A DNA stretch of 64,000 nucleotides from a virus (IMGVR_UViG_3300032246_001368:1-64000), one strand, 5' to 3'; positions 9,415-64,000 are shown, numbered from the stretch's first letter. The notes: generated by a model from the sequence alone, not told the origin. Numbers and translations are program-made.

Positions 9415-9755
9415 CTAGTAATATGTGAAAGGATAGGCCAAGATCCGCTAAGATAAGTTTTTACTTCACCAGAAGAAAGAGTTAATCTTAAATCGTATTT
9501 ATATTTTCCAGGAGGAACATCTATTATTCGTTGTGGTATGTGTACTATACCAGACAAAGCTGGTGTTTGTATGGTAATGCCACTATTTGAAGTGGATAAG
9601 GTTAACACAGAAGGACTATCAAAAGACAAGCGCAAATCCATCTCTAATGATGCACCAGTCAGATCCAAAGCTGACCCACCACGCAGAAATGTTATAGAAC
9701 CTAGCCCATCCCAGGTATCACCAGCTATATGGGAAGTAATGTCATAAGAGATCAT
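9411..9755 (-). CDS. BppU-N-like Ig-fold tail attachment protein, 114 aa
   Basis: GDTW.....F......LDLTGAS....R ... G.YKYDLRLT...G.VKTYLSG pattern of small phage BppU-like proteins. Confidence 0.6.
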   Translation of the reverse strand: MISYDITSHIAGDTWDGLGSITFLRGGSALDLTGASLEMDLRLSFDSPSVLTLSTSNSGITIQTPALSGIVHIPQRIIDVPPGKYKYDLRLTLSSGEVKTYLSGSWPILSHITR

Positions 9756-35246: not shown

Positions 35247-35264
35247 ATATATAGTAGTTGGACC

Positions 35265-35274
35265 TAAATATTTA
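35265..35274. promoter_or_regulatory. palindromic TAAATATTTA, candidate bidirectional late promoter
   Basis: Perfect 10-bp palindrome giving TAAATA on both strands between divergent starts at 35246 (-) and 35282 (+). Confidence 0.5.
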
Positions 35275-35281
35275 CCTCCAC

Positions 35282-35788
35282 ATGGCTACAATTTACCTGG
35301 ATAATTTAATAAACCCGCGCCAAACCAATTCTTCTGCCACTACCGTGTCCAAAGAAACCCCCTCTACTGGACCAATTTATACAGATTTACACCTTGATTT
35401 AGTAATAGCAAAAAACGCTGGGGTGGGATTGAATGCTCATGATTCTGATGATATTGAGATAGATGAAGATACTGCAGCCATTAAAAATTCTTTATATAAC
35501 ATATTTTCCACTATACCAGGACAGAAGTTATTAACACCTTCCTTTGGAGCCTCTTTAGATCAATATGTATTTGAGTCTGTAGATACAATGAGAGGCAAAA
35601 TCATCGGTGAAGACATCTTAAGAGCAATAACAACCTTTGAACCTAGGATCCAAGTCCTAAATATAGAAGTATATCCTAAACCAGACGAATTAATGTACTA
35701 CATTATTTTAGTATATCAATTAGTAGGTCTTAATAAGGTATACAGAAATCAAATACAAGTAGAATCTAATAATATCAAAGTAATATGA
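35282..35788 (+). CDS. gp25: baseplate wedge subunit (T4 gp25-like)
   Basis: YTDLHLD; AIKNSLYNIFSTIPGQKLL.PSFG.SL..YVFE; AITTFEPRI; ATG at 35282 preferred over TTG 35258. Confidence 0.9.
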   Translation: MATIYLDNLINPRQTNSSATTVSKETPSTGPIYTDLHLDLVIAKNAGVGLNAHDSDDIEIDEDTAAIKNSLYNIFSTIPGQKLLTPSFGASLDQYVFESVDTMRGKIIGEDILRAITTFEPRIQVLNIEVYPKPDELMYYIILVYQLVGLNKVYRNQIQVESNNIKVI

Positions 35789-37590: not shown

Positions 37591-40500
37591 ATGCAATCAT
37601 CCTTAGTCAATAATCTTTTAGCATATTGGAAATTAAACGAAACTAGTGGAACGAGATTAGATTCTACTGGTAATAATCATTCCATATCAGAGGCAAACGG
37701 AACCGTTAATAGTGCTAGTGGTCTTTTATCCAAAGCTGCTTACATTTCTAACGGAAATACAAATTCTTGGTTAAAATTACCCCCCGGAATTTGTGATGTA
37801 GGAAACGGGCAAAAAACATTTTCTATATGGTTTAAAATAAATCAGACAAATATAGGATATCAATGGATATGGATGAATGGGTATACTGGAGGTTCTAATG
37901 ATATAGGTATTTGTTATATTGAAAATGGCAGTTATTTAAATTCTTTATTCGTAACAAATACAGAAAGTCATTGGGATGCATACAATCTTGGAGGAAATAT
38001 AGTTCCTACAGCAAATGTTTGGCATCATTTTGTTTGCACATTTAGTGGAGATACATACACTGCCTATTATGACGGGGAACAGATAGCTCAATTTGGTTAT
38101 AGTGGTACAGTTATATCCAGCGGCACGGAATATACATTAGGCCATTATAATCAAGCTCCTACCCTTGGTGCTTTCAAGGGAGCACTGGATGAAGTAGGTA
38201 TATGGAATAGAGTTTTATCACCAGCCGAAATAACCAATTTATACAACAATAGATTAGGAGATTCTTATCCCTTTTATGGTCCATCAAATTTTGTCGTAGA
38301 CTTAAATAGAGGATATGCAGGAGTTACAGAATTCAATTTTAATTCCTATATAAATCCTGCATATGAAGTAACCGCTGTATTATGGGGATTTGGTGATGGA
38401 TCAACCAGCAGAGAGTTAAATCCTAAACACACATACTACGTTCCAGGCAATTATACGGTTTATTTTAATATATACACATCTTCAACAGAAGTTATTAGTT
38501 TAACTAGTAATGTAAACATAGATGTATATTTAAATGAATCAATATATTTTGATTTTGTTCCTCCTCCTACTTTTGCCGGTCATTACAACAGATACCCATT
38601 TAAAATTAATATTACATCAAGTAATACTGGTCCTCATTATATTGATCTTGGAGCCCAATTCTCAAGATCTTATCAATCACAAAATCCATCTAATAAATGG
38701 TCTTTCCTCAGACCACAATGGAGATTTTTAGATTTAGACGGTAATGTCATAACATCAGTTAAAACAAAAGATACAATTATTAAGATTAATAATAGCAATG
38801 CTATAGATCCCACAGGTTTTGTGGCTGGTGTAACAGGAACTGCAGAATTTTATTTCGTTGATGATATATACAATTCAGATTTAGTTGTATCCAGACAACC
38901 TTATACAACACTCATAGCAACTCTTCAAACAAGTGCTATAAGATCTTTTAAAGATGGTATAAACACAGATAAAGAATTGCCTAGTTTTAGTAATAGTTTA
39001 GCAATAGCCACCAGTCCTTATATGGTATTGTGGAGAACACCAGAGAATATCAAAATAACCGAGAACGGCATTAGACAGCACAGTAATCCAAGATGGAATG
39101 GCGTTAATAATAGTCTCATAGTAAACACAGATTTTAGAGAATATGCATACCCTGATGAATGGGTAGATGGTAAGGGAGTGGAGATAGCATCCCCTGAAGA
39201 TTTTTTCATACACAATTTTCCGTTATCCAATTCTGAAGAAATAAAATTAAATGTAGGTGTTGTGGGATTAAGTGCTAATTTTACACCCCAACCCACAGAA
39301 ATGGTTTGGATAGACGAAACCGGTTATAAGGTTCCAGGATATTATAAAGGAAGATTTGAAACGTCTCATGTAGATACTTTAGGTGCTACAATTACTGCTA
39401 ATACCACCATTACGATGCCTCCAATGTCTAGTAATTTCTTCAATCCTGTGTTATGGGTGTCTAATCCAGAAGCTGGAATGTTGGCTACTGTACAATACAA
39501 ATACCAACCCAATTTATCTGACGCAACGACCTCTAATTTAGATGTTGCACAAATCTTTACTTTTGACGTTCCTATATTAAATGACGATGTTGATTTTGTA
39601 AAAGATCCCATGGCGTTATCAGGGTTCCACGGCATTAATAGTTTTGCAGCTTTGCCATCACCCAATTATCATGCATGGGCATCTGATTCAGAATTAAATT
39701 ATCTTTATAGATTTTCTTCCAACGGTCAAATTCTTTGTGCTGTAGATATTAATAAAATTATTACAGATAATAAATTAGGATTTTCAGTTCCTAAACAATG
39801 CTCACCAGTGTCTATTGCTCTTGATGGCAATCGCAATATATGGATGACTCTTTACGATACTGTATCTACATTAAAATTTGATAGTATGGGTAATTTCTTA
39901 TTTGCAGTTAGCCCATTATCAGCTACTGGTTATCCTTTACCTCCTAACATTTCTCCAGATTGGTTCGGAGAGTCTTCATATTATGATGCTAATGATTATC
40001 CTCCTTCTGGAAACGGTGATAATAATTTCGTAGAACCTACTGGTCTGGATACTGACACCAAAGACAATGTTTGGGTATCATATTCTAATTATGCTAGTGG
40101 ATATCTTGTAAAATATAGCTCCTCTGGCGGTTTATTAAATTCTCTAACATTTCCTCTTTGTTCTTGTCCTCAAGAAATTGTAGTAGATAAAAATGACGAT
40201 GTATGGTTAGCATTATCCAACCATATTTGGAATGGTCCTAGTTATATTGTAAAATTAAATTCTAATGGTCAAACATTAAGTTCTTTTGGTCCTTATAATG
40301 GTGTTAATCATTTAACAATAGACGTAAATCAGAATCTCTGGTTTACCTATAGTTATCAATGGATTGGTAATATAAACAACCTAACAGCGGATGTAACTAC
40401 ATTAGAAGTATCAGGAAATAATGTAACATCCAATATTCCAAATTGGTGGGACCCTAATTTAAATACAGATGAAACTGCTCTCGAAGGCATTGCAACCGAT

Positions 40501-41577
40501 TTAAGAGGATTTGTTTATGTTATTAATTCCGTAGAGAACCAGATATATGTTATAGATAGTTATAATAACGTTTTACAAAACAGATTCTACATTAATCCGC
40601 AAGGGTTTAATCATGTGATGGACGATCAAGAATCTCCTACAAAATTAATATACAATGTTTGGAATAAATCTGCTCAGGCAAGTGGAGACTGGTCTGGGTG
40701 GAAGTGGATTAACAAATTCAGAGATAGATTACCTTATTATACAGAAAAAACTACTACCAAATATCTTACAGGTGCAACAAACCCCTTGGATTTTTACAAT
40801 AATGATCCTTACGAAATTTTTAAAATAAATGAAGATCATGATTTAGCTGAGCAGATGAAATCGGTATCGTTTCAACCCATCTTAGCAAATAGTAATACAT
40901 TATTTGATGAATTCCTCGGCCCTATATTCGGACAATATCCTTTTGAAGCAGATGACCTCGGTGTTTCTTCATATGAAAAAATAGCAAACTTTGTTTCAAA
41001 TATATCAGATGCTGATTATTGTAACATAGATGAATTGTATAATATTTCGGATATGGTCGACTTGGATTTTGATAACTTCAAATTAACATATCCTACTTTA
41101 ATAAAGAGGCTTTTAAATTTTGCCAGTGTTAATCAATCAAGATTATGGGGTTCTAGATTATTAAATCAAGATAATTTCAAAAAACCCAGTGGAATGGGAA
41201 CTCTTAACAGAGGAGATTTGATAACATCGACATATTATACAATCACAGCAGGTGAACCAGTTGTATTAAAAACCAAATCACTTAACTCTTATCAGTTAAT
41301 ACCAACCGGTGAAATTAATGGTAATAATATCTATTCTCTCAATGATTTAGCAACATCTATAGGATTAGAAAATTATAATTGGCCTCAGTTCTATGAATTC
41401 TATGAATTTATACCTTCTTATGACAATACACAAATAGAAGGTTTAATTGATTGGAGTAATCCTCAAACGACTTTAAATGAGACACTATCAACATCTAATG
41501 ATTGGATGGGAAATGAAGGTATATTAGAAACTTTATTTTCTCACAAGTTGTATAAGGGTTTAGGATTAATAGATTAA
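37591..41577 (+). CDS. large baseplate/virion protein: LamG + PKD + beta-propeller, 1328 aa
   Basis: LLAYWKLNE.SG...WHHFVCT...FKGALDEVGIWNRVLS.AEI (LamG); WGFGDGSTS..LNPKHTY..PG.YTV (PKD); repeated P..I..D....VW blades; follows gp6. Confidence 0.75.
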   Translation: MQSSLVNNLLAYWKLNETSGTRLDSTGNNHSISEANGTVNSASGLLSKAAYISNGNTNSWLKLPPGICDVGNGQKTFSIWFKINQTNIGYQWIWMNGYTGGSNDIGICYIENGSYLNSLFVTNTESHWDAYNLGGNIVPTANVWHHFVCTFSGDTYTAYYDGEQIAQFGYSGTVISSGTEYTLGHYNQAPTLGAFKGALDEVGIWNRVLSPAEITNLYNNRLGDSYPFYGPSNFVVDLNRGYAGVTEFNFNSYINPAYEVTAVLWGFGDGSTSRELNPKHTYYVPGNYTVYFNIYTSSTEVISLTSNVNIDVYLNESIYFDFVPPPTFAGHYNRYPFKINITSSNTGPHYIDLGAQFSRSYQSQNPSNKWSFLRPQWRFLDLDGNVITSVKTKDTIIKINNSNAIDPTGFVAGVTGTAEFYFVDDIYNSDLVVSRQPYTTLIATLQTSAIRSFKDGINTDKELPSFSNSLAIATSPYMVLWRTPENIKITENGIRQHSNPRWNGVNNSLIVNTDFREYAYPDEWVDGKGVEIASPEDFFIHNFPLSNSEEIKLNVGVVGLSANFTPQPTEMVWIDETGYKVPGYYKGRFETSHVDTLGATITANTTITMPPMSSNFFNPVLWVSNPEAGMLATVQYKYQPNLSDATTSNLDVAQIFTFDVPILNDDVDFVKDPMALSGFHGINSFAALPSPNYHAWASDSELNYLYRFSSNGQILCAVDINKIITDNKLGFSVPKQCSPVSIALDGNRNIWMTLYDTVSTLKFDSMGNFLFAVSPLSATGYPLPPNISPDWFGESSYYDANDYPPSGNGDNNFVEPTGLDTDTKDNVWVSYSNYASGYLVKYSSSGGLLNSLTFPLCSCPQEIVVDKNDDVWLALSNHIWNGPSYIVKLNSNGQTLSSFGPYNGVNHLTIDVNQNLWFTYSYQWIGNINNLTADVTTLEVSGNNVTSNIPNWWDPNLNTDETALEGIATDLRGFVYVINSVENQIYVIDSYNNVLQNRFYINPQGFNHVMDDQESPTKLIYNVWNKSAQASGDWSGWKWINKFRDRLPYYTEKTTTKYLTGATNPLDFYNNDPYEIFKINEDHDLAEQMKSVSFQPILANSNTLFDEFLGPIFGQYPFEADDLGVSSYEKIANFVSNISDADYCNIDELYNISDMVDLDFDNFKLTYPTLIKRLLNFASVNQSRLWGSRLLNQDNFKKPSGMGTLNRGDLITSTYYTITAGEPVVLKTKSLNSYQLIPTGEINGNNIYSLNDLATSIGLENYNWPQFYEFYEFIPSYDNTQIEGLIDWSNPQTTLNETLSTSNDWMGNEGILETLFSHKLYKGLGLID

Positions 41578-52210: not shown

Positions 52211-55200
52211 ATGTCCTCACCTATTTATTCCCAGCCACTTTCTTCGATTTACTGGCTACCGATAGAATTTAATATAGTAGGAGAGGAATTTTCTACAGTT
52301 AATACACCATTACTATTCAGTAATGGAATGTCGTTTAATCTCCATGACTGTTTAAAGGATTATAATGACGTTTCCTTTAATAGAAGAACTGGAATGTTCT
52401 TAACAAACATATATAACTATAATTCTATATTAAAAAATAACACATCACCGAATTACAAAGAAGACCTCACAGAAATAAAAAGTCCTTTAGCTACATTAGA
52501 TTCCTTAATAATATCATTATCCACAGGTTCTAATGGGTTATTCAAATCTGATAGATACGAAGTAAGTTCTGAAGATAATTTAACCTTCACATTTAATTCT
52601 GATGATAAAGTATTAATAGAAGCCCCTGATAAAACAGTATTGACTGGAACATCCACTGGTCAAGGAGGTCTTTCTTTCCAATTAAAAATATCGCCTCCAG
52701 ACAGCAGTCAATTATTCGATTACTTGTTAGGCCCTGACACGATAGTACTATTTAAATCTGGTACATCATTTTCTCAGATAGTAGAAAGAAATGGAAATGC
52801 CTATCAACTTTCAACCATTAATTATGGAATAAATACGAATCTCCCAGAGACAGTAATTTTTAAACTTGCATCTTATACAGGTCAAGGTGAATTGTTACCT
52901 GACATAAAAAATAGTACACTCATAAGATATTTAACCAATCCACTATCAGACCAAAAATCACTAAAAGTAGATTCTGATATATTATCAACCGGATATGCAC
53001 AAAATTATCTTGGAGTATTCCCTTATGAATACCCACAGATAAACGACAAAACCGCTAGTTATGCATTACAAATGCATGGTCTTAAAAATTATCAAACACC
53101 TGAATACAATTATAGTTTCGGACAGGAATATGTAGCAGGTCAAAAGGGTATAAGGAGAATCTATGATAGAATATTCACCGGTACCAATCAAGAAAAGGGT
53201 TTGAATAATGTATATCTAGGATTCCAGGCAAATACATCTCAAATAATATTTAAAAGAGATCTAGATACTCCTTTCTATTTTCCTCCTTCAACTAAAAGAA
53301 CTGCTTTGAGTTCTGCTGGTATAATTGAAGATGGGGGAATTGCTAGTGGTTCACCTTATACCTCTGATAGAATTTATATAAAACAAATAGATTATACAGA
53401 AAAAACGCCTGGAGTGCCTCAACCACCTTCAGTTACTCGTTATAGCAATGTCTGGCTTTGTTCTTGGTTATCAGGAGACAATAACGGAAATGCCGCTTGG
53501 ATGGATCGTTTTTACAATTCTGCTTATTATACAATAGATCAAGCTCTTTCAGCCAAGTCACTATTTTATCATCATAAAACAATAGCAGACCAAGAATTTA
53601 CATTTGATGTTCCTTCTACAATGGTTTTAGAACCTGGTGTACTCTATAGATATCACAGGGTAGGTCCTAATGTTAGTTCTTCATTCGTAACTCATTTAGA
53701 TGCAGACCCAGGCAATGCTTTGGGTTCTAAGGTATTACATATCAGTGCTTGGGACTCTTCGCCTTTACAAGATTTATCAAAATATAATAATGACGGATTA
53801 ATATTCTTTAACAACTCACAAAATTTAAAAGATCAATACTGGATTTTAGACGGAACTAATCATGCCGTATTCCCAGCTAAAAATTCTTTATTAGAATCAA
53901 CAAGAATGACAGTATCTTTATGGATCAACGTCGATGATTGGGCTAATATAAATGGCGGACAAATCTTTGGTAACTATTATGATAGTGGTTTTGGTTTAAT
54001 AAATGATTCCGCCTTAACAGCACCGTTATTTTCTTTAGTAAATAATATATCATCAGCATCCTACGATATAAATTATAGACTCAATGTAGTAAACTCAAAT
54101 AACATTCCTTCATTACCGTTGAGTAATAATAACATTGTAGTACGTTTACCCGATTTTAGTACATGGGTATTTGATTCTTATAATATAATAGGTAGAAAAT
54201 TCAATACATACGGACGTATAGAACATACAACATCTCCTTCAGTATCAGCTTTTATATATAACATAGATCAAGTAGAAGTAGACGGAAATGGCAATTTATT
54301 CATATTCGATATTGCTAATCACAAATTAGTAAAAACAGATTCTAACGGAAATTATATAACAAATTATTCTTTAGTGTCCAGTGCAAAACGTTTCGAATTA
54401 GATTTAGAGAATACGGTAATCCCTATTTACGGCAATGCGTCCGTAATAGACAATTCAAATAATATTTGGGAGTCTATAGGTAGCAATCTCTATAAGAATA
54501 GAGTTATATATGCAAATATAGGACCTATACAACAATTAAGTTGTGATGCAAGTAATAACATATGGATATTACACGACCAAGATAGTGTTACAAAATTAAA
54601 TGCAGATTCGGGAGTATTTGTTTTTAACTTAAGAATAGGTGAAAATTCAGACTTATCTATTAATTCTTGCAACAAACCCACTACACAGACAAGATTTTTA
54701 AATTTCTTAAGAACACCGAATCTCAATCAAACATTATGTTCTTCTTCAAAATCTTCAACAGAAGATTTGGCAGTATTAATTGACAATGATAATGACCAAG
54801 TATATATATTAGATGTAAGTGGTAATCTTTTGACAAAACTCAATTTAAATACATTAAGCAATGGTGATTCTTCAGACTTTGTAGCTAAGGGAGATTTTTC
54901 AGGATATCAGTATCTAAGAAAGTATAGTGCATTGACTAAAAACTTAAGTTGGAAATTTAAAATATCCAATCCTGATGGTTCTAATAGCCAATACCTTTCT
55001 TTAAATTATGGTGTAAGTTCATTACCCAATGGATGGCATAATTTTGCTTTCGTATTTGATTCCACAAAAGGCATAGCCGAATATTATATAGATTCGTTGA
55101 AAGTAGACCAAGTGGATTTCACAGCCAACAAATACCAACTCTATTATGACTATAGGTCTTCTTTACTCTTAGGCGCCGCTTCAATGAAGAATAGTACTTT

Positions 55201-55561
55201 AAATGATATTATTGGTATAGATGATGCTTATAAATTCATAGGTAAGGTTGCGGATCTTCGTATGTATAATAAGTCTTTATCTCCGGGTGAGATCGAGCAA
55301 ATATACTTTGCAGCTCCCTTCAATGAAGGTAGACAAGATTTAGCCTGGAATACTTCCGTAGGTAATTGCAACTTCATTGAAGAAATTCAACATTGGTTCC
55401 AAATGCAATTACCAGGTAGTAAAAGTAAATATTATAACATTAATATACACAATCTTAATGTGACAGATGAAATTAAAAAATTAATAGAAAATGCTTTGAA
55501 AAATAATATTCAAAAGATATCTCCGGCTCAAGCCTCTCTATATAAAATAAATTGGATGTAA
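52211..55561 (+). CDS. virion protein with a split LamG domain enclosing a beta-propeller, 1116 aa
   Basis: LDGTNHA...MTVSLWINVDDW, then about 350 aa of propeller-like D..NNIW repeats, then GWHNFAFVFD...YYID...FIGKVADLRMYNKSLS..EI. Confidence 0.7.
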   Translation: MSSPIYSQPLSSIYWLPIEFNIVGEEFSTVNTPLLFSNGMSFNLHDCLKDYNDVSFNRRTGMFLTNIYNYNSILKNNTSPNYKEDLTEIKSPLATLDSLIISLSTGSNGLFKSDRYEVSSEDNLTFTFNSDDKVLIEAPDKTVLTGTSTGQGGLSFQLKISPPDSSQLFDYLLGPDTIVLFKSGTSFSQIVERNGNAYQLSTINYGINTNLPETVIFKLASYTGQGELLPDIKNSTLIRYLTNPLSDQKSLKVDSDILSTGYAQNYLGVFPYEYPQINDKTASYALQMHGLKNYQTPEYNYSFGQEYVAGQKGIRRIYDRIFTGTNQEKGLNNVYLGFQANTSQIIFKRDLDTPFYFPPSTKRTALSSAGIIEDGGIASGSPYTSDRIYIKQIDYTEKTPGVPQPPSVTRYSNVWLCSWLSGDNNGNAAWMDRFYNSAYYTIDQALSAKSLFYHHKTIADQEFTFDVPSTMVLEPGVLYRYHRVGPNVSSSFVTHLDADPGNALGSKVLHISAWDSSPLQDLSKYNNDGLIFFNNSQNLKDQYWILDGTNHAVFPAKNSLLESTRMTVSLWINVDDWANINGGQIFGNYYDSGFGLINDSALTAPLFSLVNNISSASYDINYRLNVVNSNNIPSLPLSNNNIVVRLPDFSTWVFDSYNIIGRKFNTYGRIEHTTSPSVSAFIYNIDQVEVDGNGNLFIFDIANHKLVKTDSNGNYITNYSLVSSAKRFELDLENTVIPIYGNASVIDNSNNIWESIGSNLYKNRVIYANIGPIQQLSCDASNNIWILHDQDSVTKLNADSGVFVFNLRIGENSDLSINSCNKPTTQTRFLNFLRTPNLNQTLCSSSKSSTEDLAVLIDNDNDQVYILDVSGNLLTKLNLNTLSNGDSSDFVAKGDFSGYQYLRKYSALTKNLSWKFKISNPDGSNSQYLSLNYGVSSLPNGWHNFAFVFDSTKGIAEYYIDSLKVDQVDFTANKYQLYYDYRSSLLLGAASMKNSTLNDIIGIDDAYKFIGKVADLRMYNKSLSPGEIEQIYFAAPFNEGRQDLAWNTSVGNCNFIEEIQHWFQMQLPGSKSKYYNINIHNLNVTDEIKKLIENALKNNIQKISPAQASLYKINWM

Positions 55562-55562
55562 T

Positions 55563-56348
55563 ATGGCCACAGTAACATTACCTATCAAATCAGACGAGAC
55601 TTGTTCTAATATATTTTTATTAGATGAACGTCTCTGTTTAGATGTTTCTCTGGATGTTATTAATTTTAATTTTAACCAATTACAATCCAATTTAAATGTT
55701 ATTAACAATTATGGACAACAATGGAATAATTTGTTCACAGTATTTGCTAATAATAGTTCTAGATGGTTTACTTCATCAACTAATGTTTATTCTCTCAGCT
55801 CTAAATGGGTTAATACATATCAAACAATTAATTCTTTAAGTGCTACTTGGTGTAAAGAATTTTCTTTATATTATCCCACTATCTTAGAAATCAATTCATG
55901 GTATGCTTTAAATACCAATGCCAAGAACAGTATAGCAACTAACTGGTTGAATTTAAACTTCCCAGCATCATCCTTCCCAAAAAATCAAATCATATCCTTT
56001 TATATAAATTTATATCAACAGAAGCCATTTACTTTTAGTTTCATGAGATCCCTCTATGAACCATGTACACCCAATGGTGGAGGAGCATCTGTTAGTTGTG
56101 GTCAGTGCCCAACACCTTCAAGAGGATGCAATCATCACGGAGGAAGGGCTGGTTATGGACCATGTACAAATGCTTATGATGGATGTTCTAAACAAACAAC
56201 TGGATATGGTACACAATCATTTTCTTGTAGAGCAAATGGATATAAAACATTAGTGATTGGTAAGACCCAAAATTATGTAGACACTAGCACCGCTAGAGTT
56301 ATAAGACTAAGGTTTCAAAATATCAATAATAACTGGAGCGCAATATAA
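55563..56348 (+). CDS. virion protein, paralogue 1 of 3, with Cys-rich insert
   Basis: SL..IN.NF coiled coil, NSSRW/LSSKW repeats, W..EFS.YYP, WL..NFP; 7-Cys insert. Confidence 0.7.
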   Translation: MATVTLPIKSDETCSNIFLLDERLCLDVSLDVINFNFNQLQSNLNVINNYGQQWNNLFTVFANNSSRWFTSSTNVYSLSSKWVNTYQTINSLSATWCKEFSLYYPTILEINSWYALNTNAKNSIATNWLNLNFPASSFPKNQIISFYINLYQQKPFTFSFMRSLYEPCTPNGGGASVSCGQCPTPSRGCNHHGGRAGYGPCTNAYDGCSKQTTGYGTQSFSCRANGYKTLVIGKTQNYVDTSTARVIRLRFQNINNNWSAI

Positions 56349-57127
56349 TGCCTTATAATATTACCAATATACAATCAAATACTACTATAGGAGACTCACT
56401 CTCTTCTATGAACAGTAATTATGCAGTTCTTGAGACCTGGGTCAACAATATTCAATTAAGTGCTACGAATCTTTGGATACCACTTACAGAATTCTATAAT
56501 GCATATTCAGCATTTTTTAAATCTGCAAATACCACGAGCCAGCAATATTCAGCTTCTTGGGTAAGCATGTCTACCACCGTAGAAACCAATAGTGCCAAGT
56601 GGATAAAACCTATAACTATTTTTTATCCCCAAATATTTCCGTATCCATTTACTAACAATAATACAAACACCGTATATAATTGGCTAACAAATAATTTCCC
56701 AGTATCAGGTACTACAGTTACCAAACCAAGTTACGTAGAAAATCAACAAATCATTATTTATGCACATACATATACACAGAATGTACAACCTGACACGGTA
56801 TATAACCTCATGGATATGGCACAATGTTCAACCTACGATGGTAATATTTGTGCATATTGCACAACTAGTTATTATGGATATGTATATTGCAGTAATGGAG
56901 ATTTCTCATGCGGAGGATCTTCTTCATGCAGTCAATGTGCCACCGTCAATTGTTATTATACCGGATACCCGTATGTCAATTTAACAAATAGAGGTAGATC
57001 AGCTCAAAGTTATATATCAGCTGCCGTGACGATGGGCTTCTCCGAAAGACAAGAAGTCAAACAAATCAAAGCAATATCCTATAAAGTAAAAAATTGTAAT
57101 TGGGTATTTGATAAATTTATAAACTAA
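56348..57127 (+). CDS. virion protein, paralogue 2 of 3, with Cys-rich insert
   Basis: IGDSL..MN.NY, NSAKW, I.IFYP, WL.NNFP; 8-Cys insert; TAATG coupling to previous gene. Confidence 0.7.
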   Translation: MPYNITNIQSNTTIGDSLSSMNSNYAVLETWVNNIQLSATNLWIPLTEFYNAYSAFFKSANTTSQQYSASWVSMSTTVETNSAKWIKPITIFYPQIFPYPFTNNNTNTVYNWLTNNFPVSGTTVTKPSYVENQQIIIYAHTYTQNVQPDTVYNLMDMAQCSTYDGNICAYCTTSYYGYVYCSNGDFSCGGSSSCSQCATVNCYYTGYPYVNLTNRGRSAQSYISAAVTMGFSERQEVKQIKAISYKVKNCNWVFDKFIN

Positions 57128-57128
57128 T

Positions 57129-57767
57129 ATGGCTACAAATAATTTAACATTTGAAATTTTTAATGAAGACTACGTAGGTGATTCTATAGGCAAACATAAT
57201 TATAATGCTTTATCACTTGACACGTCAATTTGTAATTTGTCGTCTATGTTATTTAATGATGCGGATAACATATATGTTACGCTTGCAGATTTAGCATATA
57301 ATATTAACAAATTTAATCAAACCGCTAGTTTGTTTGTTGATCCTTCACGATATGATACATGTTCTTCTGCTACATCATTATTAAGTTCTTACTGGAGCCA
57401 ACATGAATTTTCTGTTCATTATCCTATTAACATATCCACTATTAATAATTTAGCAATCGACGCTCCGGTGTATAATTCCCCAGAAGCAAGATTAACCTCT
57501 TTAGCACTTGCCTATCTTAATGCTAATTTCAAGGCGAATGTCTTTACACAAGGGACCAAAGCTAATGTCATATTCTTTTTGTATAATGTAGGTATTAATC
57601 CATCAGATCCAAATAATTTAATGCATGTATCATTCTCCCCAGAAATATCATTTGTTAACAGGTATATGTCAGCGTCTTATAAAAGGGATGACGCCCATTT
57701 TACAAATGGTAAAATAATAAAATTCGTGCAAACCAATGGTACCTGGGTTAAAATAAGTTCATTATAA
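57129..57767 (+). CDS. virion protein, paralogue 3 of 3, lacking the Cys insert
   Basis: VGDSI..HNYN, LSSYW..HEFSVHYP, YL.ANF, C-terminal IIKF....G.W.KI shared with the two preceding genes. Confidence 0.7.
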   Translation: MATNNLTFEIFNEDYVGDSIGKHNYNALSLDTSICNLSSMLFNDADNIYVTLADLAYNINKFNQTASLFVDPSRYDTCSSATSLLSSYWSQHEFSVHYPINISTINNLAIDAPVYNSPEARLTSLALAYLNANFKANVFTQGTKANVIFFLYNVGINPSDPNNLMHVSFSPEISFVNRYMSASYKRDDAHFTNGKIIKFVQTNGTWVKISSL

Positions 57768-58213
57768 TGTTAGTACTTTTTAACAAAGATAAGCAATTTA
57801 TAGGATTTAGTCCGGATCTTCCACAAGAAGCTCTGGAAAATTTTTATACCAAAGAAGTACCAGAGTCACAAGCCGATTTTACTAAATGGAGGTGGGATGG
57901 GGATTATGAATCTGGGAGAATGGTATCGATAGTAGAGGATGGATATCCGATAGAAGAATTAGAGTTAGAAAGACAATTATTTGAAAAGATAGATCAAAAA
58001 TATCCATTGGGAGTACAGTTGGTTAATATTATCAGACAATTGAAATTACTATCTAATGAAGGAGAAGCCGATTATAGATTTACGGATATGGCAGACACAA
58101 TATTAGATGCAGTGGAAAAACATGATAGTAGAATTAAATATTATCAGTCGCGTAACAAACTTTTAAATAAAGAAGATGCACAACAACAATTTACAAACAC
58201 TTTCGGAAAATAA
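57767..58213 (+). CDS. hypothetical protein, possible tail-fibre assembly chaperone
   Basis: TAATG-coupled to the triplet; beta N-half (KWRWDGD) plus helical C-half (IDQKYP...Q), a layout reminiscent of Tfa-type chaperones. Confidence 0.5.
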   Translation: MLVLFNKDKQFIGFSPDLPQEALENFYTKEVPESQADFTKWRWDGDYESGRMVSIVEDGYPIEELELERQLFEKIDQKYPLGVQLVNIIRQLKLLSNEGEADYRFTDMADTILDAVEKHDSRIKYYQSRNKLLNKEDAQQQFTNTFGK

Positions 58214-58643
58214 AAACCCAAGCCTTAAATGTAGATATGCTAAAGGACTAGGAGATTTAGTGGCATGTATTTTACACGGGCCCCTTTCTTGGTTAACATT
58301 TGCTATCACCAAGAAAAGAATACCTTGTTCTAAATGCTCTTTAAGAGCAGAAGCCCTTAATACGTTAGTACCCATTCCTTTTTGGAAATTATTTTACGAT
58401 AGTATAGATGAGTTGTTAAAGGATTTATCACAGGAAATGGTTAGTGCTGGTTATAAAGTATCTTTAACAGAAGATGGAAAGGGTATTAGTTCATCTAAAT
58501 TCTCAGAGACTCTACCTCCTTTACAATCCTCACACATGCCTAATATACCTTCAAGTGATATAGAAGATTATAATCTCATCAGTAGCGGAGATAACATAAT
58601 GGGAGATTTTATTGTTAGAGTTCAAATTTTTAAACGTAAATAG
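58176..58643 (+). CDS. hypothetical CxxC protein with GLGD motif, 155 aa
   Basis: CRYAKGLGDLVAC..H...PCSKCSLRAEALN.LVP. Confidence 0.65.
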   Translation: MHNNNLQTLSENKNPSLKCRYAKGLGDLVACILHGPLSWLTFAITKKRIPCSKCSLRAEALNTLVPIPFWKLFYDSIDELLKDLSQEMVSAGYKVSLTEDGKGISSSKFSETLPPLQSSHMPNIPSSDIEDYNLISSGDNIMGDFIVRVQIFKRK

Positions 58644-58647
58644 TTCC

Positions 58648-59112
58648 ATGGATATTCAAGTCATAGCAGTAACCCCTATAGAGTGTTCTTTAGACACTAC
58701 AAGAGAATTCGGAATACTTCTCTCCAAAGCCATTTCAATCATTCATATGGTTCATTGGTATGCACCTAATTATGATGCGCATGTTATTTTAGGTGATTTG
58801 TATGAGACTCTTGATGGGTTATTTGACAAGCTTCAAGAAGAGATCATAGGAACATCCAAGCTTCAAAACCAACAATTTCCTTCTCTCGGTCCAGTTGTTC
58901 TAGACCTAGACTATATTAATCAATATAGATCAGAAGGTAATAATGTCATGGGCACATACACCAAGACATATCAAACAATTGTTAATATACTGTCCTCATT
59001 AGAATTTACTTCTTATGTTGATAATGTTCAGTCAGGCCTCAATAACACTAAGGAAGATATCCTTTCCTCGTTTAATAAGGCCAATTATCTGTTGTCTTTA
59101 GTTAAGATTTAA
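58648..59112 (+). CDS. phage Dps/ferritin-like four-helix protein (DUF5856-like)
   Basis: HMVHW....YDAHVILGDLYETLDGLFDKLQEEIIG and terminal NKANYLLSL; ATG 58648 preferred over 58612 (TAAATA 5 nt upstream). Confidence 0.75.
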   Translation: MDIQVIAVTPIECSLDTTREFGILLSKAISIIHMVHWYAPNYDAHVILGDLYETLDGLFDKLQEEIIGTSKLQNQQFPSLGPVVLDLDYINQYRSEGNNVMGTYTKTYQTIVNILSSLEFTSYVDNVQSGLNNTKEDILSSFNKANYLLSLVKI

Positions 59113-59218: not shown

Positions 59219-62200
59219 TCAACTAAATGTGACTGTCAATTCCACACCACCACAATACCCATAGATATCATATCCGGTTATTCTAAATGTTTCTTTAGGG
59301 CCTACAGTAATTGAGTAATTAATAGGACCAGCAGCACAAGTAGCGGTTTCTCCACCTGCTCTCAACCAGATATTCCCACCAGTATATTCTAATAAGGCAT
59401 CATCATCTGCACTACCAACTATTGTTACATTAGAGGTTCTATTAAAAGGATTAATGAAAACTTTACTTGCAATGAAATTATAAGGAGGTTGACATCCAGT
59501 GCCTGGGTATATACAACCATTATTTTGAATTAAATATTGAACCGCGGCGGGAGGTTCATTATCCAATATGCAATAATACCCTAATTTATCACCATCGGTC
59601 GTAGTCACTAATGTAGAATTACATATAGCGCCTGAACCCACACATTCACACCAGGTAGGGCTTGATGCATATCCATAATATTCTACAGTACTAGGATCAC
59701 TCGAAGTAGGAGTTGCACAGCCAGCGCAACCAGTTATAGATGTATCACCTGCTCCGCCCGGGCCGTCCGGTATAGATGGTACACACCCACCGTTGATATA
59801 ATACCAAGGATTATCACCTAATCCCTGACATGCAGATACAGACACTAATGTCGAATCTGCACATGGACCTGAAAGCTTATATAAATTAGTTTTATATAAA
59901 CCATAATCATTACCGAATATATCACTACTCCAATGATCTAATACACCTTTATTGATTAATAATTTTTCTATTCTCTTGAGATAAGAAGAAGATAATAATT
60001 CATTTCTAAAAGTAAGAGGATATTTTTCTGGTGAATTCCAAACGCCTGGATCAGCTGGGTTCCAGAATTGGAAATTATCAGCTTCGCCTTGTCTAAAGAG
60101 ACCGTGTATATTTTTACCCATTATTTCATATCTAGATTGATATGGTGTAAATTTTTGATTCTCTTGAGTGCCTATTATAACTCCAGCCTTGATACCAGCA
60201 CTATAAGGCTCCATAACCCATCGATTGTCTATATCGGTAATAGTTACCGGAGTTATCTGATCCTTTTTAGTAAGGCCTCTATTACGAGGTCCATACTTTT
60301 GTGTATCAAAGAATATTCTTTCTGCACTTAGAGAATCTATACTCTCTAATGTACCGCCATCTACTTCAATAGTATAACCTCTTCCTCTGTAAGAGGAGGC
60401 GCCTAATTTCTCTGGTAACATATACTCACCTAATTGTCTTTCAGAAACAGTCAATTGGGGATATGAAACAGTAGCTACTGTAGGGTAAAATTTATTATCT
60501 AAATTCGCATAAGGTTCTGAGGGTGAAATGATAGCACCAGTATTAAAGACTACGAAAGTCGAAGGACATCTTGAAACATAATATAAATTTTGTTGATAGT
60601 TAAATGCATTACGTGCAAAGTAATTGTAACGAGAAGGTCGGAATTGTGAGAAGCTTTCTAATAAAATATCACTATCCTCATCAGATCCATAACCAATAAG
60701 ATCTAAAGTTCCAGTTCTTAATATATCTGCTAGATTGGAATAATCCTTATAGAAAACCATTTTCTTCCAACGATTGGATGAAAGAGTTACTTCTAATGAA
60801 ACTGGTTGATTCCAATCAAGAGTCTTATAATCCTTTCTTGAATATTGAATAAAGTCACCATTTGTTAATACTAACGGTGAAATCTCTGGTTGATGGACCG
60901 GTACATAATCATCAAAGAATCTTACTTGTCCACCGAAAGATGAAGTCTCTTTATTGAATTCATTGTTAGTGTCAGGAGAATTATAAACTTTGCCCCAGAA
61001 AGGTTTAGCACCAAAGGAAGAACCTTCTGCAGAGGTTATAAAGGTATTGCTAGTATAATCCCAACCATCTAATTTAAAATTAGCCGTGAATGAAATTGCT
61101 GGTTGTGTGAAGCTAGAACTATTATTTGGTGATATATAACTAATACCGTCCCTGTGAACATATATCAAATAGTCTCCAGGATATATATTCATATCAGATA
61201 TATCATCAGTTGATACCCAATCACCATTAACACCTCTTACAGCTTTATACCAGGTTGCTGCAAAGTTACCACAACCTGCGATTCTTCGAGATATAAGTTG
61301 TGAGAATGTAGGTTCATCACCATCCCCAGAAGTAAGATATCTTTGAAGATTAAAATAGGTAGATGGAGATGAAGCCATCTCTTCCATCAAGGTATTGTTG
61401 ACAGACAATAAACCAATATCAACAGTATTAATTTCTACACCCTTATTGGTTAATATTTTAGCACGAGGAAGTGCTGCACCTATATTTTCATTTTCAGCTC
61501 CGTCACTGAATATAACAATTTTTTTATTACACCCTTCTTGTGGATTGTTTAAAATCTTAACTGCTTTGGACTGAGATATAATAGTAGTATTTAAATTTTT
61601 ACAAAGATCAAAGAAATTAAAATTGTTAACAGTAGCACTAGTAGGGATCTGATTGTAAAGAATAGAATCAGCTAATATTAAAGCGTTTTCTATATTCGTT
61701 CTAAAATTAGGATAACCACTATCGATTTGTATTTGACTTATATATAAATCAATAGTAGCCGGATCATTAGACAGATATGTTATAGTAGATGCTTCATTGT
61801 CAAAAGTAATAATAGATATCTGAGCAGACACACCGCCGGTGCTTAAAATAGCATCAGTAATATTCTTTAAAGAATTTTTAACACTTTGTAGATCTAAACT
61901 TTGTGATTTACTGATATCAATGATTAATACTACATCCATACACCCCGAGGCATTACAATTACCCTTTATTCTTTTATATGGATAATTGACAACAATATAA
62001 GGAGAAGCAATTTCTGTAGTCTTAGCCACATCTTTTCTTAAAGAAGAACGATAATAGGTATAACGTCTTCCAGTTTTAAAAACCATGCGTGAACCGTCTC
62101 CGGTTTTCCATTTACCCGGGCCCCATCCTATTTCCTTATCTCCGTCTCCTCCCGTCTGTAATTGATAGAAAGCAAACTGAGGACTATTGAATGGAGTATA

Positions 62201-64000
62201 TCCTCTAGTATCAGTCCAGCTGTTTATCGCAAAGTCAGCTCCTAAACCATCCGGATCAGCAAAAAGATAATCAGCAACTCCATTATAATCTAAAAGATTC
62301 TCTCCAGCATGCCCTATAGGAGAATACTTTAAAGAACGGCATGTACATGTCTTCCAAGCATCTAAAGAATTAATGGGTGTAGGATTTAAATAATCTTGAT
62401 TACTGTAATAATCATGAGGAAGGTTTTTACCATATGCACAATCAGCACTATGCTCATAGTATTTTATAACTTCATCTGCATAGGTATCTTCGTCCATCCA
62501 TATAAAGGATATCTTATCAGACGGATCAACCTTTATAGATAAAGCACCTTGTATAGGTCCATCAATAAACTGAGCACATTTAATAGCCGGTGTGGAGTAG
62601 ACCGGAATACTATTCGTAAATAAATCTAAATTGGTAATTGAACCTGAACCAAGCCAAGCCGCTTCTACCGGTTCTGACGTACGATTATTAAGTCTGTATA
62701 TAACATCTGAGGAATTGAAGTCAGTTCCTGCTATGGCACCTGGTACGGTATTGGAAGGATTAGTATAAGATAAACCTAACGGCAAACATTGATCCTTTTT
62801 GATAGTAATGGGTATATTATTAACTTCATCAAATACTTCTATAGGCCAATATATTTGATTAGATCCTTGAGCCAAAGGCAAATCAGTTCTATCAAATTTG
62901 AAAGCATATGCTTGTTCGGTTTCACCTAAGAGCGAATCACTGTATATAGATAATACACTATTACTACTCAGTCTCTTAGTAAGAACATCAGCTTCATCAG
63001 AAAATTTAGCAGCGAATGCTCCAGAGTCTATTAAATTAGTTTGGTTAATATATAAAGGCTTACTAGCAGAAATGGGCAATGATTGTGTATAATACTGTTC
63101 TAGGATGAGTCTTTGTATGCTTCCATCCAACGTATTGAATAGAGGAATATAACTTTGATCAAAAGTATAACCACCCCAACTTAAATTTTTTGAATTTAAA
63201 TTAAAACCCACATAAGGAAAGATAAACTCTTTTATTAAACCAGGCTTGAATGATATAGAAACATTAGCACTTGTATTTAAAAGATAAGTTCCTTTTAACC
63301 AGGCTCCCTCTATCGTACCATTTTTCTCTGTAAAGATTAAATCCGAATTAGAATACTCAGTCCCTGCCGTAGCACTACATGCTACAAAATTAGAATCGTT
63401 TATATAAATTGGAGAGAATATATCATTGAATAAAGTAGTATCAAATACTCTATCTCCGCTCGGCCACAAGAACCAATTATTACCAGGTTCCATTCCTATG
63501 TTTAATACTTGATCTGGTACATTATATTCACTTAAACGTACAGCAGTTAATCCATAAACAGTCTCCCCAAGATATTTTTGGGCAGCGGCTGTTTTATTAT
63601 AAACATCTTGAAAAGCCGTTGAAGATAATGAAGCAGTTGAAAGGGTGGGTATAGATGTCAAATATTGTTTAAATATTTGTGATAAAGGAGTCTCTGCTAC
63701 CTTAGGTAAAAATCTAGTAGCAAGTATTGCATTGATTTCCTCTTCTGTTAAAGGGTCTCCCTCATCCACAAAAGGTATTTCATTTTCTACATCTGATAGA
63801 CTAACATATTCATTTATATTAACTGAAGGATCGGAATCGTGATAAGAAGAAGGATCATATAATTCCTCAACCTCTATGAAGAAATTATCCTTTACTGATG
63901 TCAAATCAGGGAATACACTTTGAACCACCAATGCAGGTACCTGTACCGTAGAATCTTCTTTCTTCGTAAATCCCTTTAATACATATTCATAAAGGAGTCT
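59219..64000 (-). CDS. very large virion protein with vWA domain and Cys-rich C-terminus (5' end outside window)
   Basis: Frame stays open from 63931 to 64000 (RLLYEYVLKG...); vWA MIDAS DVVLIIDISKSQS, TNIENAL..A, IVIFSDG; 13 Cys in the last ~215 aa. Confidence 0.75.
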   Translation of the reverse strand, partial: RLLYEYVLKGFTKKEDSTVQVPALVVQSVFPDLTSVKDNFFIEVEELYDPSSYHDSDPSVNINEYVSLSDVENEIPFVDEGDPLTEEEINAILATRFLPKVAETPLSQIFKQYLTSIPTLSTASLSSTAFQDVYNKTAAAQKYLGETVYGLTAVRLSEYNVPDQVLNIGMEPGNNWFLWPSGDRVFDTTLFNDIFSPIYINDSNFVACSATAGTEYSNSDLIFTEKNGTIEGAWLKGTYLLNTSANVSISFKPGLIKEFIFPYVGFNLNSKNLSWGGYTFDQSYIPLFNTLDGSIQRLILEQYYTQSLPISASKPLYINQTNLIDSGAFAAKFSDEADVLTKRLSSNSVLSIYSDSLLGETEQAYAFKFDRTDLPLAQGSNQIYWPIEVFDEVNNIPITIKKDQCLPLGLSYTNPSNTVPGAIAGTDFNSSDVIYRLNNRTSEPVEAAWLGSGSITNLDLFTNSIPVYSTPAIKCAQFIDGPIQGALSIKVDPSDKISFIWMDEDTYADEVIKYYEHSADCAYGKNLPHDYYSNQDYLNPTPINSLDAWKTCTCRSLKYSPIGHAGENLLDYNGVADYLFADPDGLGADFAINSWTDTRGYTPFNSPQFAFYQLQTGGDGDKEIGWGPGKWKTGDGSRMVFKTGRRYTYYRSSLRKDVAKTTEIASPYIVVNYPYKRIKGNCNASGCMDVVLIIDISKSQSLDLQSVKNSLKNITDAILSTGGVSAQISIITFDNEASTITYLSNDPATIDLYISQIQIDSGYPNFRTNIENALILADSILYNQIPTSATVNNFNFFDLCKNLNTTIISQSKAVKILNNPQEGCNKKIVIFSDGAENENIGAALPRAKILTNKGVEINTVDIGLLSVNNTLMEEMASSPSTYFNLQRYLTSGDGDEPTFSQLISRRIAGCGNFAATWYKAVRGVNGDWVSTDDISDMNIYPGDYLIYVHRDGISYISPNNSSSFTQPAISFTANFKLDGWDYTSNTFITSAEGSSFGAKPFWGKVYNSPDTNNEFNKETSSFGGQVRFFDDYVPVHQPEISPLVLTNGDFIQYSRKDYKTLDWNQPVSLEVTLSSNRWKKMVFYKDYSNLADILRTGTLDLIGYGSDEDSDILLESFSQFRPSRYNYFARNAFNYQQNLYYVSRCPSTFVVFNTGAIISPSEPYANLDNKFYPTVATVSYPQLTVSERQLGEYMLPEKLGASSYRGRGYTIEVDGGTLESIDSLSAERIFFDTQKYGPRNRGLTKKDQITPVTITDIDNRWVMEPYSAGIKAGVIIGTQENQKFTPYQSRYEIMGKNIHGLFRQGEADNFQFWNPADPGVWNSPEKYPLTFRNELLSSSYLKRIEKLLINKGVLDHWSSDIFGNDYGLYKTNLYKLSGPCADSTLVSVSACQGLGDNPWYYINGGCVPSIPDGPGGAGDTSITGCAGCATPTSSDPSTVEYYGYASSPTWCECVGSGAICNSTLVTTTDGDKLGYYCILDNEPPAAVQYLIQNNGCIYPGTGCQPPYNFIASKVFINPFNRTSNVTIVGSADDDALLEYTGGNIWLRAGGETATCAAGPINYSITVGPKETFRITGYDIYGYCGGVELTVTFS

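Follow-up and report, generated by a model that had tools for sequence, protein, structure and literature searches.

Six genes probably forming the distal end of a tail-fiber cluster in an uncultured T4-like phage: three paralogous proteins, conserved cysteine clusters, and a neighboring Dps-like gene

We analyzed positions 55563 to 59112 of a viral DNA stretch of 64,000 nucleotides (IMGVR_UViG_3300032246_001368:1-64000; called the window below), which takes in the first 64 kb of an IMG/VR record that is 111.6 kb long and by estimate about 52% complete. It was found that six consecutive genes, designated p1, p2, p3, o4, o5, and o6, probably represent the distal end of the tail-fiber (receptor-binding) cluster of a T4-like myovirus, with p1, p2, and p3 as paralogous fiber-tip proteins. 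The triplet p1 to p3 is paralogous, the cysteines of p1 and p2 are conserved and covary in pairs, relatives of the triplet carry fusions to the GP38 adhesin domain, and the gene order is conserved with exceptions. An initial annotation of this DNA had proposed six consecutive open reading frames (ORFs) on the plus strand, and all six were present:

p1, 55563-56348, plus strand, 261 aa: probable fiber-tip paralog 1, with an N-terminal Cys pair, a Trp-repeat helix, and a 7-Cys β-rich head
p2, 56348-57127, plus strand, 259 aa: probable fiber-tip paralog 2, with a predicted helix at residues 14-81, an α/β neck, and a β-rich head with an 8-Cys cluster plus C250
p3, 57129-57767, plus strand, 212 aa: probable fiber-tip paralog 3 in a short form, lacking the Cys cluster and the gp38-type domain
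o4, 57767-58213, plus strand, 148 aa: acidic helical protein in the fiber-chaperone slot, a putative chaperone by position
o5, 58176-58643, plus strand, 155 aa: N-terminal GLGD...LH...PC-x2-C-x2-R-x3-LN module and a variable C-terminal domain
o6, 58648-59112, plus strand, 154 aa from the ATG: Dps-family mini-ferritin, Pfam DUF5856

The genes had been described as separated by gaps or overlaps of 0 to 4 nt, and this was correct for four of the junctions (a 1-nt overlap, a 1-nt gap, a 1-nt overlap, and a 4-nt gap), whereas o4 and o5 overlap by 38 nt, with an overlap of similar size in relatives. The ATG at 58648 is the start of o6 in all relatives. The T4 late-promoter motif TATAAATA did not occur within the six-gene block and was under-represented in the window. 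Among 50,697 records of cultured phages, neither DNA nor protein searches gave a match to the 3.5-kb region, to p2, or to o6.

The proposal that p1, p2, and p3 share one scaffold was borne out, in that the three are true paralogs by both BLASTP and family-profile alignment. The BLASTP expectation values (E) were 1e-8 for p1 and p2, 0.002 for p1 and p3, and 0.056 for p2 and p3, the pairs with p3 being marginal. When profiles made from orthologs were compared with hhalign, p1 and p2 aligned over 228 columns, which is the whole length including the Cys region and the C-terminal hairpin (E 1.6e-19), and p3 aligned in its N-terminal part only with p1 (140 columns, E 8.9e-15) and with p2 (137 columns, E 3.3e-8). 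Therefore, the scaffold common to all three is the N-terminal module of about 140 aa, and a distal head is additionally common to p1 and p2. In the shared module, Trp repeats of 14 residues (two heptads) make up a long amphipathic helix, and a small α/β neck comes next; the repeated Trp residues that had been pointed out before have a real 14-residue periodicity, with the p1 Trp residues at positions 54, 68, 82, and 96. No sequence relatives of this scaffold family were detected outside this phage clade. There was no Pfam or PHROG match for p1, and no Pfam match for p2 or p3.

An AlphaFold2 model of full-length p2 as a monomer, with a predicted local distance difference test (pLDDT) score of 83.6, has an uninterrupted helix at residues 14 to 81 (68 residues, pLDDT 83-95), then the α/β neck, and then a head of long β-hairpins. 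A helix of this predicted length cannot stand alone. The family-averaged hydrophobicity period was 3.5 for p1 and 3.55-3.6 for p2 and p3, and so p1 to p3 are all predicted to have a long helix with heptad-type periodicity, as in trimeric coiled-coil fiber proteins. In fold searches, the full-length p2 model matched nothing but generic coiled coils (best Z 5.9), a monocin side fiber and the SU10 fiber among them, and Foldseek returned nothing. The p2 head modeled by itself reached a pLDDT of 89.0, with a lower value of 68-69 in part of the Cys loop, and had no convincing relative in the PDB or BFVD (best VIA Z 4.6, Foldseek E≥0.02). The modeled head is thus one for which a solved fold relative was not detectable, which is not proof of a new fold.

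The cysteine strings given in the initial annotation were exact: a 7-Cys insert in p1, an 8-Cys insert in p2, and none in p3. The p1 cluster is C168-x10-C179-x2-C182-x6-C189(NHH)-x11-C201-x6-C208-x13-C222, the p2 cluster is C160-x7-C168-x2-C171-x9-C181-x6-C188-x5-C194-x2-C197-x4-C202, and the two are homologous in the profile alignment. Among p1 orthologs, C14, C25, C168, C189, C208, and C222 are invariant, and C179, C182, and C201 are present in at least 90%. Among p2 orthologs, C160, C171, C188, C202, and C250 are invariant, C194 is found in 27 of 31 sequences (30 of 33 in a wider set of loci), and C181 is found in 24 of 31 (26 of 33). This conservation of Cys positions, on which the earlier proposal depended, holds over sequences down to about 20-25% identity.

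The remaining cysteines come and go in twos. Both C168 and C197 of p2 are present in 14 of the 31 sequences and neither in 17, and they never occur singly; on a maximum-likelihood tree, this pair requires about 7 concerted changes (bootstrap range 6-8), at least 3 of which are forced by well-supported branches. In p1, two extra cysteines at positions 178 and 217 occur together in the same six sequences, and C182 and C201 were lost together in the p1 of locus L029. Such paired gain and loss of accessory cysteines is characteristic of disulfide partners and favors disulfides. The balance of the sequence evidence tips slightly toward a Cys knot that is mainly disulfide-stapled and would form on or after release from the reducing cytoplasm.

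The tail-fiber (receptor-binding) interpretation draws on GP38 fusions to p3 or p2 in relatives, a chaperone in the next gene slot, and the coiled-coil repeat helix, all of which agree with what had been proposed. The orthologs of p3 are mostly 410-536 aa in length, and the 212-aa p3 of the window is a short form. Long p3 orthologs have a Gly-rich C-terminal extension, which matched Pfam GP38 (PF05268) in 10 of 23 orthologs (best E 2.2e-14), and the p2 of locus L020 gave a full-length GP38 match (79.2 bits, E 5e-22, profile positions 5-217 of 218). The trimeric tip of Gp37 is capped by Gp38, an adhesin that is monomeric and in which a polyglycine sandwich bears the hypervariable loops (PMC12032242). 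No Pfam match to GP38 was found in the p1, p2, or p3 of the window, nor was a gp38-like domain found on the 111.6-kb contig, either with PF05268, in what is an insensitive search, or at E≤10 with a hidden Markov model (HMM) of the gp38-like extensions of relatives. This phage appears to have lost the gp38-type adhesin that is carried by the p3 of most relatives. With no gp38-like domain on the contig, the tip must be formed by the p1 and p2 heads, or else receptor binding is done by other fibers.

In the clade of loci L034 to L042, the slot of o4 is filled by a Pfam Phage_tail_APC chaperone (E 3e-16). In L030 and L032, an extra giant gene with a Gly_rich_2 domain and an ORF with a tail-Collar domain lie between p3 and o4, and these insertions show that the region is a hot spot for the swapping of receptor-binding modules. 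The Gly-rich protein in these two loci (L030:9724-14104 and L032:9614-13106) is 970-1258 aa in length (Pfam Gly_rich_2, E 6e-21), and both loci have an enlarged p1 of 624-627 aa. L034 to L042 are the most divergent clade, and some members carry extra ORFs, namely, ORFs of 168-273 aa that separate p2 from p3 and, in L034, one of 144 aa (for example, at L034:8906-9858, L035:10227-10802, and L037:2897-3718). A conserved ORF of about 190 aa that begins MANKTFGDLP lies after p3 and before the APC chaperone in this clade. Neither this ORF nor the extra ORFs belong to a Pfam family.

All genomic context was drawn from IMG/VR loci. A set of 5.8 billion proteins contained 19 relatives of p2; an IMG/VR scan with the single p2 sequence found nothing, and an alignment-based scan found 41 loci. 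Two large genes that flank the block are needed to describe the arrangement:

up1116 (the LamG gene), 52211..55561, plus strand: 1116-aa fiber-like protein with a C-terminal Laminin_G_3 (ConA-like) domain, Pfam E 3.5e-9
VWA giant, 59219..63931, minus strand: 1570 aa or more (the reading frame is still open where the window ends), convergent on o6, with a VWA domain, Pfam E 1.5e-9

Essentially all of the 41 p2-anchored loci have the order up249, up1116, p1, p2, p3, (o4), (o5), o6, and convergent giant gene, where up249 encodes 249 aa. The LamG gene is always immediately upstream of p1 in this canonical arrangement (about 40 loci), and in virtually every complete locus all three of p1, p2, and p3 occur, in an unchanged order. 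When the search was anchored on o6, 67 loci were obtained: 49 have the full order, 10 are cut by contig ends and are consistent with it, 1 is uninformative, and 7 (L056, L063, L070, L072, L074, L077, and L078) are rearranged. The order in L078 is up249, up1116, o6, the giant gene on the reverse strand, a gene of 194 aa, and then p1, p2, p3, o4, and o5, so that the LamG gene directly precedes o6. In L056 and L077 (G003 and G004), the triplet is inverted, the giant gene lies between the triplet and o6, and o5 is just past the triplet on the same strand. In L063, L070, and L074, the triplet, o4, and o5 are all outside the fetched flanks of o6. The rearrangements in L078, L056, and L077 indicate that p1-p2-p3-(o4)-o5 behaves as one cohesive unit and that o6 does not; wherever both flanks were visible (L078, L056, and L077), o6 was between the LamG gene and the VWA giant gene.

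These arrangements bear on the proposal that the helper genes are linked to the triplet. For o5 the linkage stands, since it stays with the triplet through rearrangements, but o6 is separated from the triplet in 7 of the 67 o6-anchored loci, and a lack of such linkage in relatives had been named beforehand as a result that would count against the proposal; in the case of o6, this result was in part obtained. Two lineages (L026/L092 and L029/L090) have no o5 on their contigs, which are incomplete in both cases, and L026 keeps Cys-rich p1 and p2.

The o4 protein is a conserved acidic helical protein (114-150 aa across orthologs) that moves with the triplet in L078. It had been called chaperone-like, and the position agrees with this, since o4 occupies the slot after the tip genes where L034 to L042 have an APC chaperone, but o4 itself has no detectable chaperone homology. 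A search of Pfam families and PDB chains gave no match to o4, and the possibility that it is a diverged Phage_tail_APC was discarded because comparison with the Phage_tail_APC proteins of the clade by hhalign detected no homology (E 0.58). We regard o4 as a putative fiber assembly chaperone, as judged from gene position only.

The invariant residues of o5 are G24, G26, D27, L33, H34, C51, C54, R57, L61, N62, P66, and W70 (21 orthologs in the case of C51-x2-C54). A profile search of 1.84 billion proteins indicated that the full-length family is small, with 68 representatives at E≤1e-10, these hits being without genomic context. The o5 module of about 50 aa (GLGD...LH...PCxxCxxRxxxLN) is also found as stand-alone proteins of 54-104 aa (P0088-P0119) and, once, at the C-terminus of a calcineurin-like metallophosphoesterase (P0098, 344 aa); it may be an unnamed recurrent small domain that is worth a family of its own. 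The stand-alone proteins are mostly phage proteins, as far as weak Atlas leads indicate. For o5, searches of Pfam (E≤0.1), of PDB sequences (E≤5), and of the Atlas gave no family or relative; the Atlas model of o5 was poor (pLDDT 0.58), with structural neighbors that were unrelated or were unnamed small phage proteins. The suggestion that o5 is a thiol oxidoreductase was not supported: the CxxC is present, but there is no detectable similarity to the thioredoxin, glutaredoxin, DsbA, or Erv families, and a module that stands alone in proteins of 54-104 aa is too small for a thioredoxin fold. Residues D27, H34, C51, and C54 could form a small metal site, and His34 is not universal in the stand-alone forms of the module. 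Co-inheritance is the only functional clue to o5, from which we infer that it is an assembly or accessory factor of the triplet unit. The o5 homolog on the L056 contig (G003:C1:7867-8310) has an in-frame TAA, and in L086 the gene is broken into two ORFs (93 and 53 aa); either gene decay or errors in assembly may account for these copies.

The claim that o6 is ferritin-like with HW, H, D, and E ligands proved sound, since o6 is a genuine Dps-family protein with a ligand set that is invariant in 23 orthologs. The o6 protein translated from the ATG at 58648 scored 34.9 bits against Pfam DUF5856 (PF19174), just above the gathering cut-off of 34.6, and all 23 orthologs matched this family (best E 1e-10); o6 also matched phrog_858 (E 5e-12). 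A search of the PDB with the o6 family profile gave matches to HP-NAP (1ji4, E 5.8e-6), 2d5k (E 2.5e-5), 2pyb (E 3.2e-5), and Listeria Dps (1qgh, E 5.6e-5), and the match to 2pyb was nearly end to end (profile positions 24-146 with chain residues 16-140). Among the 23 orthologs, H36, H45, D60, and E64 are invariant, and W37 is present in at least 90%. As aligned, H36-W37, H45, D60, and E64 correspond to H25-W26, H37, D52, and E56 of HP-NAP, with a loop from the HW to the second His that is 3 residues shorter in o6; we take these HP-NAP residues to be those of the ferroxidase center. The o6 protein, present in a single copy on the contig, is accordingly best described as a Dps-like mini-ferritin with an intact predicted ferroxidase site, and DUF5856 can be read as such a family.

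The o6 gene was always found inside the late fiber cluster on the structural strand and never among early or metabolic genes; the presence of a Dps gene within the late fiber cluster of every genome examined is odd. T4 gp37-type HxH iron motifs, which are behind the 'Ferrojan horse' idea (PMC11705849), were absent from all 13 proteins of the cluster that were checked. The broken linkage of o6 and the absence of HxH motifs argue against the proposed loading of metal onto the triplet by o6, and o6 probably is not a loader for it. By position, o6 is tied to the LamG and VWA giant genes and not to the triplet. Most likely, o6 deals with iron or oxidative stress in the course of infection, or else it acts for another component of the virion. 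The general proposal that the triplet travels with its own redox or metal helpers is therefore supported by linkage in the case of o5 and weakened in the case of o6, and enzymology cannot be inferred for either.

The gene content of the contig identifies the source virus as an uncultured, deep-branching T4-like myovirus. The gp23-type major head protein has only about 36% identity to those of the nearest cultured phages, which are cyanomyoviruses, and a Portal_T4 gene, a clamp loader, and a helicase are present on the contig. Other features of the window are as follows:

gp25 homolog, 35258-35788
gp6-like wedge protein, 35785-37584
1328-aa fiber-like protein, 37591-41577, directly after the gp6-like gene: N-terminal Laminin_G_3 (E 7e-19) and PKD domains
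1018-aa repeat protein, 6358-9414, minus strand: separated from the T4-type portal gene (9791-11659) by one small gene (9411-9755)

Downstream of gp6, giant fiber-like genes of 1328, 1886, and 1115 aa are followed by genes of 217, 249, and 1116 aa and then the six-gene block, so that about 18 kb of giant fiber-like genes lie between gp6 and p1. The combination of Laminin_G_3 and PKD domains in the 1328-aa protein is unusual for the gp7 position of a T4-like baseplate. In the VWA giant, the VWA domain is at residues of about 666-750 and has a sequence, DISKS, that resembles a metal ion-dependent adhesion site; the last 215 aa or so contain 13 cysteines, and this Cys-rich C-terminus was rejected as kin of the p1 and p2 heads because no homology was found. 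In the 1018-aa protein, which belongs to no Pfam family, the unit S-[AG]-N-W-N-S-x-Y-S-x-V-N-x-x is repeated in long tandem arrays, and nine Trp-Trp spacings in a row are exactly 14. It resembles a very long coiled-coil or whisker-like fiber, and its repeat unit is common to the p1 and p2 helices. This shared 14-residue repeat unit is the reason that the p1 HMM matched the 1018-aa ORF, which was rejected as a fourth paralog in that full-domain homology was not found.

We suggest a mechanism in which the N-terminal Trp-repeat helices of p1, p2, and p3 would come together as a coiled-coil stalk and attach to a proximal fiber or baseplate component, for which the upstream 1116-aa LamG protein is the obvious candidate, and in which the distal heads of the three proteins would form the tip. 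The Cys knot would rigidify the exposed head of p1 and p2 once outside the cell, o4 would assist folding, o5 would act on the p1-p2-p3 unit, and o6 would be expressed from the same late strand. Within this mechanism we tentatively, and with less than even confidence, prefer a single 1:1:1 heterotrimer of p1, p2, and p3 with one adhesin on the tip, as in T2 and S16. A more far-reaching version, which we consider improbable, is that p1-p2-p3-o4-o5 would be a self-contained assembly line for a heterotrimeric tip that has a disulfide- or metal-knotted head of an unseen fold, with o5 as a new phage-specific thiol-disulfide or metal-insertion factor that enables cystine-stapled virion proteins to be made in a reducing cytoplasm, as in poxviruses, and with the Dps-like protein controlling iron or peroxide chemistry during that step.

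Several points weigh against the assignment to a fiber tip and against its details. A cultured relative was not found, and p1 to p3 are known from their genes and not from particles; for this phage, the fiber assignment rests on orthology, its own adhesin domain being absent. The AlphaFold2 models are of monomers, and so the trimer is putative. When gene order is conserved inside one phage clade only, it argues weakly for a functional link. The numbers of core cysteines are odd (9 in p1 and 7 in p2) and cannot all pair within one chain, and therefore at least one Cys per chain would be free, linked between chains, or ligating a metal. Extra copies of p3 in L053, L056, and L072 fit a strict 1:1:1 complex less easily, and in L020 there is a GP38 domain on p2 together with a long p3.

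The last two observations would be expected if p1, p2, and p3 were instead three different homotrimeric fibers or spikes, that is, a multi-receptor set in which the shared N-terminal module would anchor all of them to one docking site on the LamG fiber or the baseplate. Phage receptor-binding proteins are mostly homotrimers (PMC12032242), and the distal domains of p1 to p3 differ, as expected for separate specificities, so that we regard such a set, though somewhat doubtful, as nearly as probable as the heterotrimer. However, a homotrimeric p3 would carry three copies of an adhesin that is of the monomeric cap type, and the odd Cys counts of p1 and p2 suit links between different chains. The 1:1:1 heterotrimer is preferred because all three genes are kept in a fixed order across nearly every complete locus, which speaks against independent homotrimers, because only the N-terminal bundling module is common to all three, and because a single gp38-type adhesin, itself monomeric, would follow naturally from a heterotrimer. 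The odd Cys counts, which are hard to explain by intrachain disulfides alone, are also one of the reasons to consider that the p1 and p2 clusters are metal sites (of the Zn(Cys)4 type or Fe-S) formed as the proteins fold in the reducing cytoplasm. Cys clusters in proteins that acquire their fold under such conditions usually serve to bind zinc, the p2 of the window has two CxxC pairs in a near-symmetric arrangement like that of a zinc ribbon, and C168 and C197 could be outer ligands that are gained and lost together. Yet a zinc ribbon built on these two pairs is not conserved, for neither CxxC of p2 is kept as a pair; in the 17 of 31 sequences that lack C168 and C197, the replacements are variable (H, Y, S, A, K, T, N, and V) and are not alternative metal ligands. 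In the p1 CNHH, only the Cys and not the His is invariant, and the pairwise gain and loss described above, including that of C182 and C201 in L029, is what is expected of disulfide partners. We therefore consider metal sites to be rather unlikely.

The location of the triplet downstream of gp25 and gp6 homologs, in the baseplate region, invites comparison with T4 gp10, gp11, and gp12, which are encoded by adjacent genes and have a shared fold, and p1 to p3 might be an analogous set at the baseplate periphery and not a distal fiber tip. This seems quite improbable: the only identifiable domain fused to the triplet is GP38, an adhesin of the long-tail-fiber tip, and about 18 kb of giant fiber-like genes separate gp6 from p1. 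T4 baseplate proteins were not listed in the PDB profile or fold searches, an absence that does not exclude a relationship. A little short of an even chance is given to the view that o5 and o6 are passengers, with o6 an accessory Dps for DNA protection or for control of iron and peroxide in the infected cell, o5 a generic small module, and their adjacency to the triplet a matter of late-gene order. In agreement with this are the separation of o6 from the triplet in 7 of 67 loci while it stays between the LamG and VWA genes, the absence of HxH iron motifs from the fiber proteins, the interpretation of Dps-like genes in Lactobacillus and gut phages as oxidative-stress helpers (PMC8008677), the occurrence of the o5 module in stand-alone proteins and fused to a metallophosphoesterase, and the absence of o5 from two lineages, one of which retains Cys-rich p1 and p2. 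Against it, o5 (with o4) adjoins the triplet through at least 2 different rearrangements, the full-length o5 family is small, as described above, and o6 never leaves the late fiber cluster.

Receptor-binding tips set the host range of phages, and those of uncultured T4-like phages are almost unknown. A scaffold family with fused gp38-type adhesins takes the adhesin principle of T2 and S16 well beyond the enterobacterial Straboviridae, and the conserved Cys-knot head, for which no solved fold relative was detectable, would be an alternative tip. The module is a concrete and cheap test case for disulfide- or metal-stapled receptor-binding domains in tailed phages and for the helpers that such domains may have, and Pfam DUF5856 gains a functional identity as a Dps-like protein with an intact predicted ferroxidase site. 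If the heterotrimer is true, gene triplication would explain how a monomeric adhesin can be placed on a three-fold fiber.

As a known kind of system, the block is a tail-fiber tip module with a gp38-type adhesin and a chaperone; the paralog triplication, the Cys-knot head, the co-travelling CxxC module, and the embedded Dps gene are features of particular interest. Like gp10, gp11, and gp12 of T4, p1 to p3 are three consecutive, diverged, paralogous structural genes in the tail-fiber and baseplate region, but their domain content (coiled-coil Trp repeats, a Cys knot, and GP38) is different, and no similarity was detected. The o4 gene resembles those of tail-fiber chaperones (Phage_tail_APC, T4 gp38 and gp57A, and Mu/P2 Tfa) in its slot directly after the tip genes and in its co-inheritance with them, although it has no detectable sequence similarity to APC, Pfam families, or solved chaperones. 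Compared with the Dps/HP-NAP mini-ferritins, o6 is of the same length class, matches nearly end to end, and keeps the ligands and the adjacent Trp, whereas its loop is 3 residues shorter and its gene is in the late tail-fiber cluster of a T4-like phage; the phage Dps-like genes reported before are from Lactobacillus and gut phages. The cytoplasmic disulfide pathway of poxviruses (E10R-A2.5L-G4L) uses small CxxC/CxxxC proteins to make disulfide-bonded virion proteins in a reducing cytoplasm. It offers a functional analogy, pertinent only if o5 is a thiol factor, in that o5 is a small virus-encoded CxxC protein, but o5 has no similarity to Erv1/ALR, glutaredoxin, or thioredoxin, and a flavin-binding oxidase is not evident in the module.

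The closest comparison is with the Gp38 system of T2/T6/S16-type Straboviridae. In that system, the adhesin is a separate polypeptide of about 260 aa that is docked on Gp37, whereas here it is fused to a coiled-coil scaffold that exists as three paralogs, and the phage of the window lacks GP38 and has the Cys-knot head on p1 and p2 instead. In most relatives, however, p3 (and p2 in genomes of the L020/L055 type) ends in a full-length match to the GP38 profile with its Gly-rich motifs. The genes of the module are likewise at the end of the fiber cluster and are followed by the chaperone slot, and with one adhesin on each tip the arrangement would correspond to that of Gp38, which caps its tip as a monomer.

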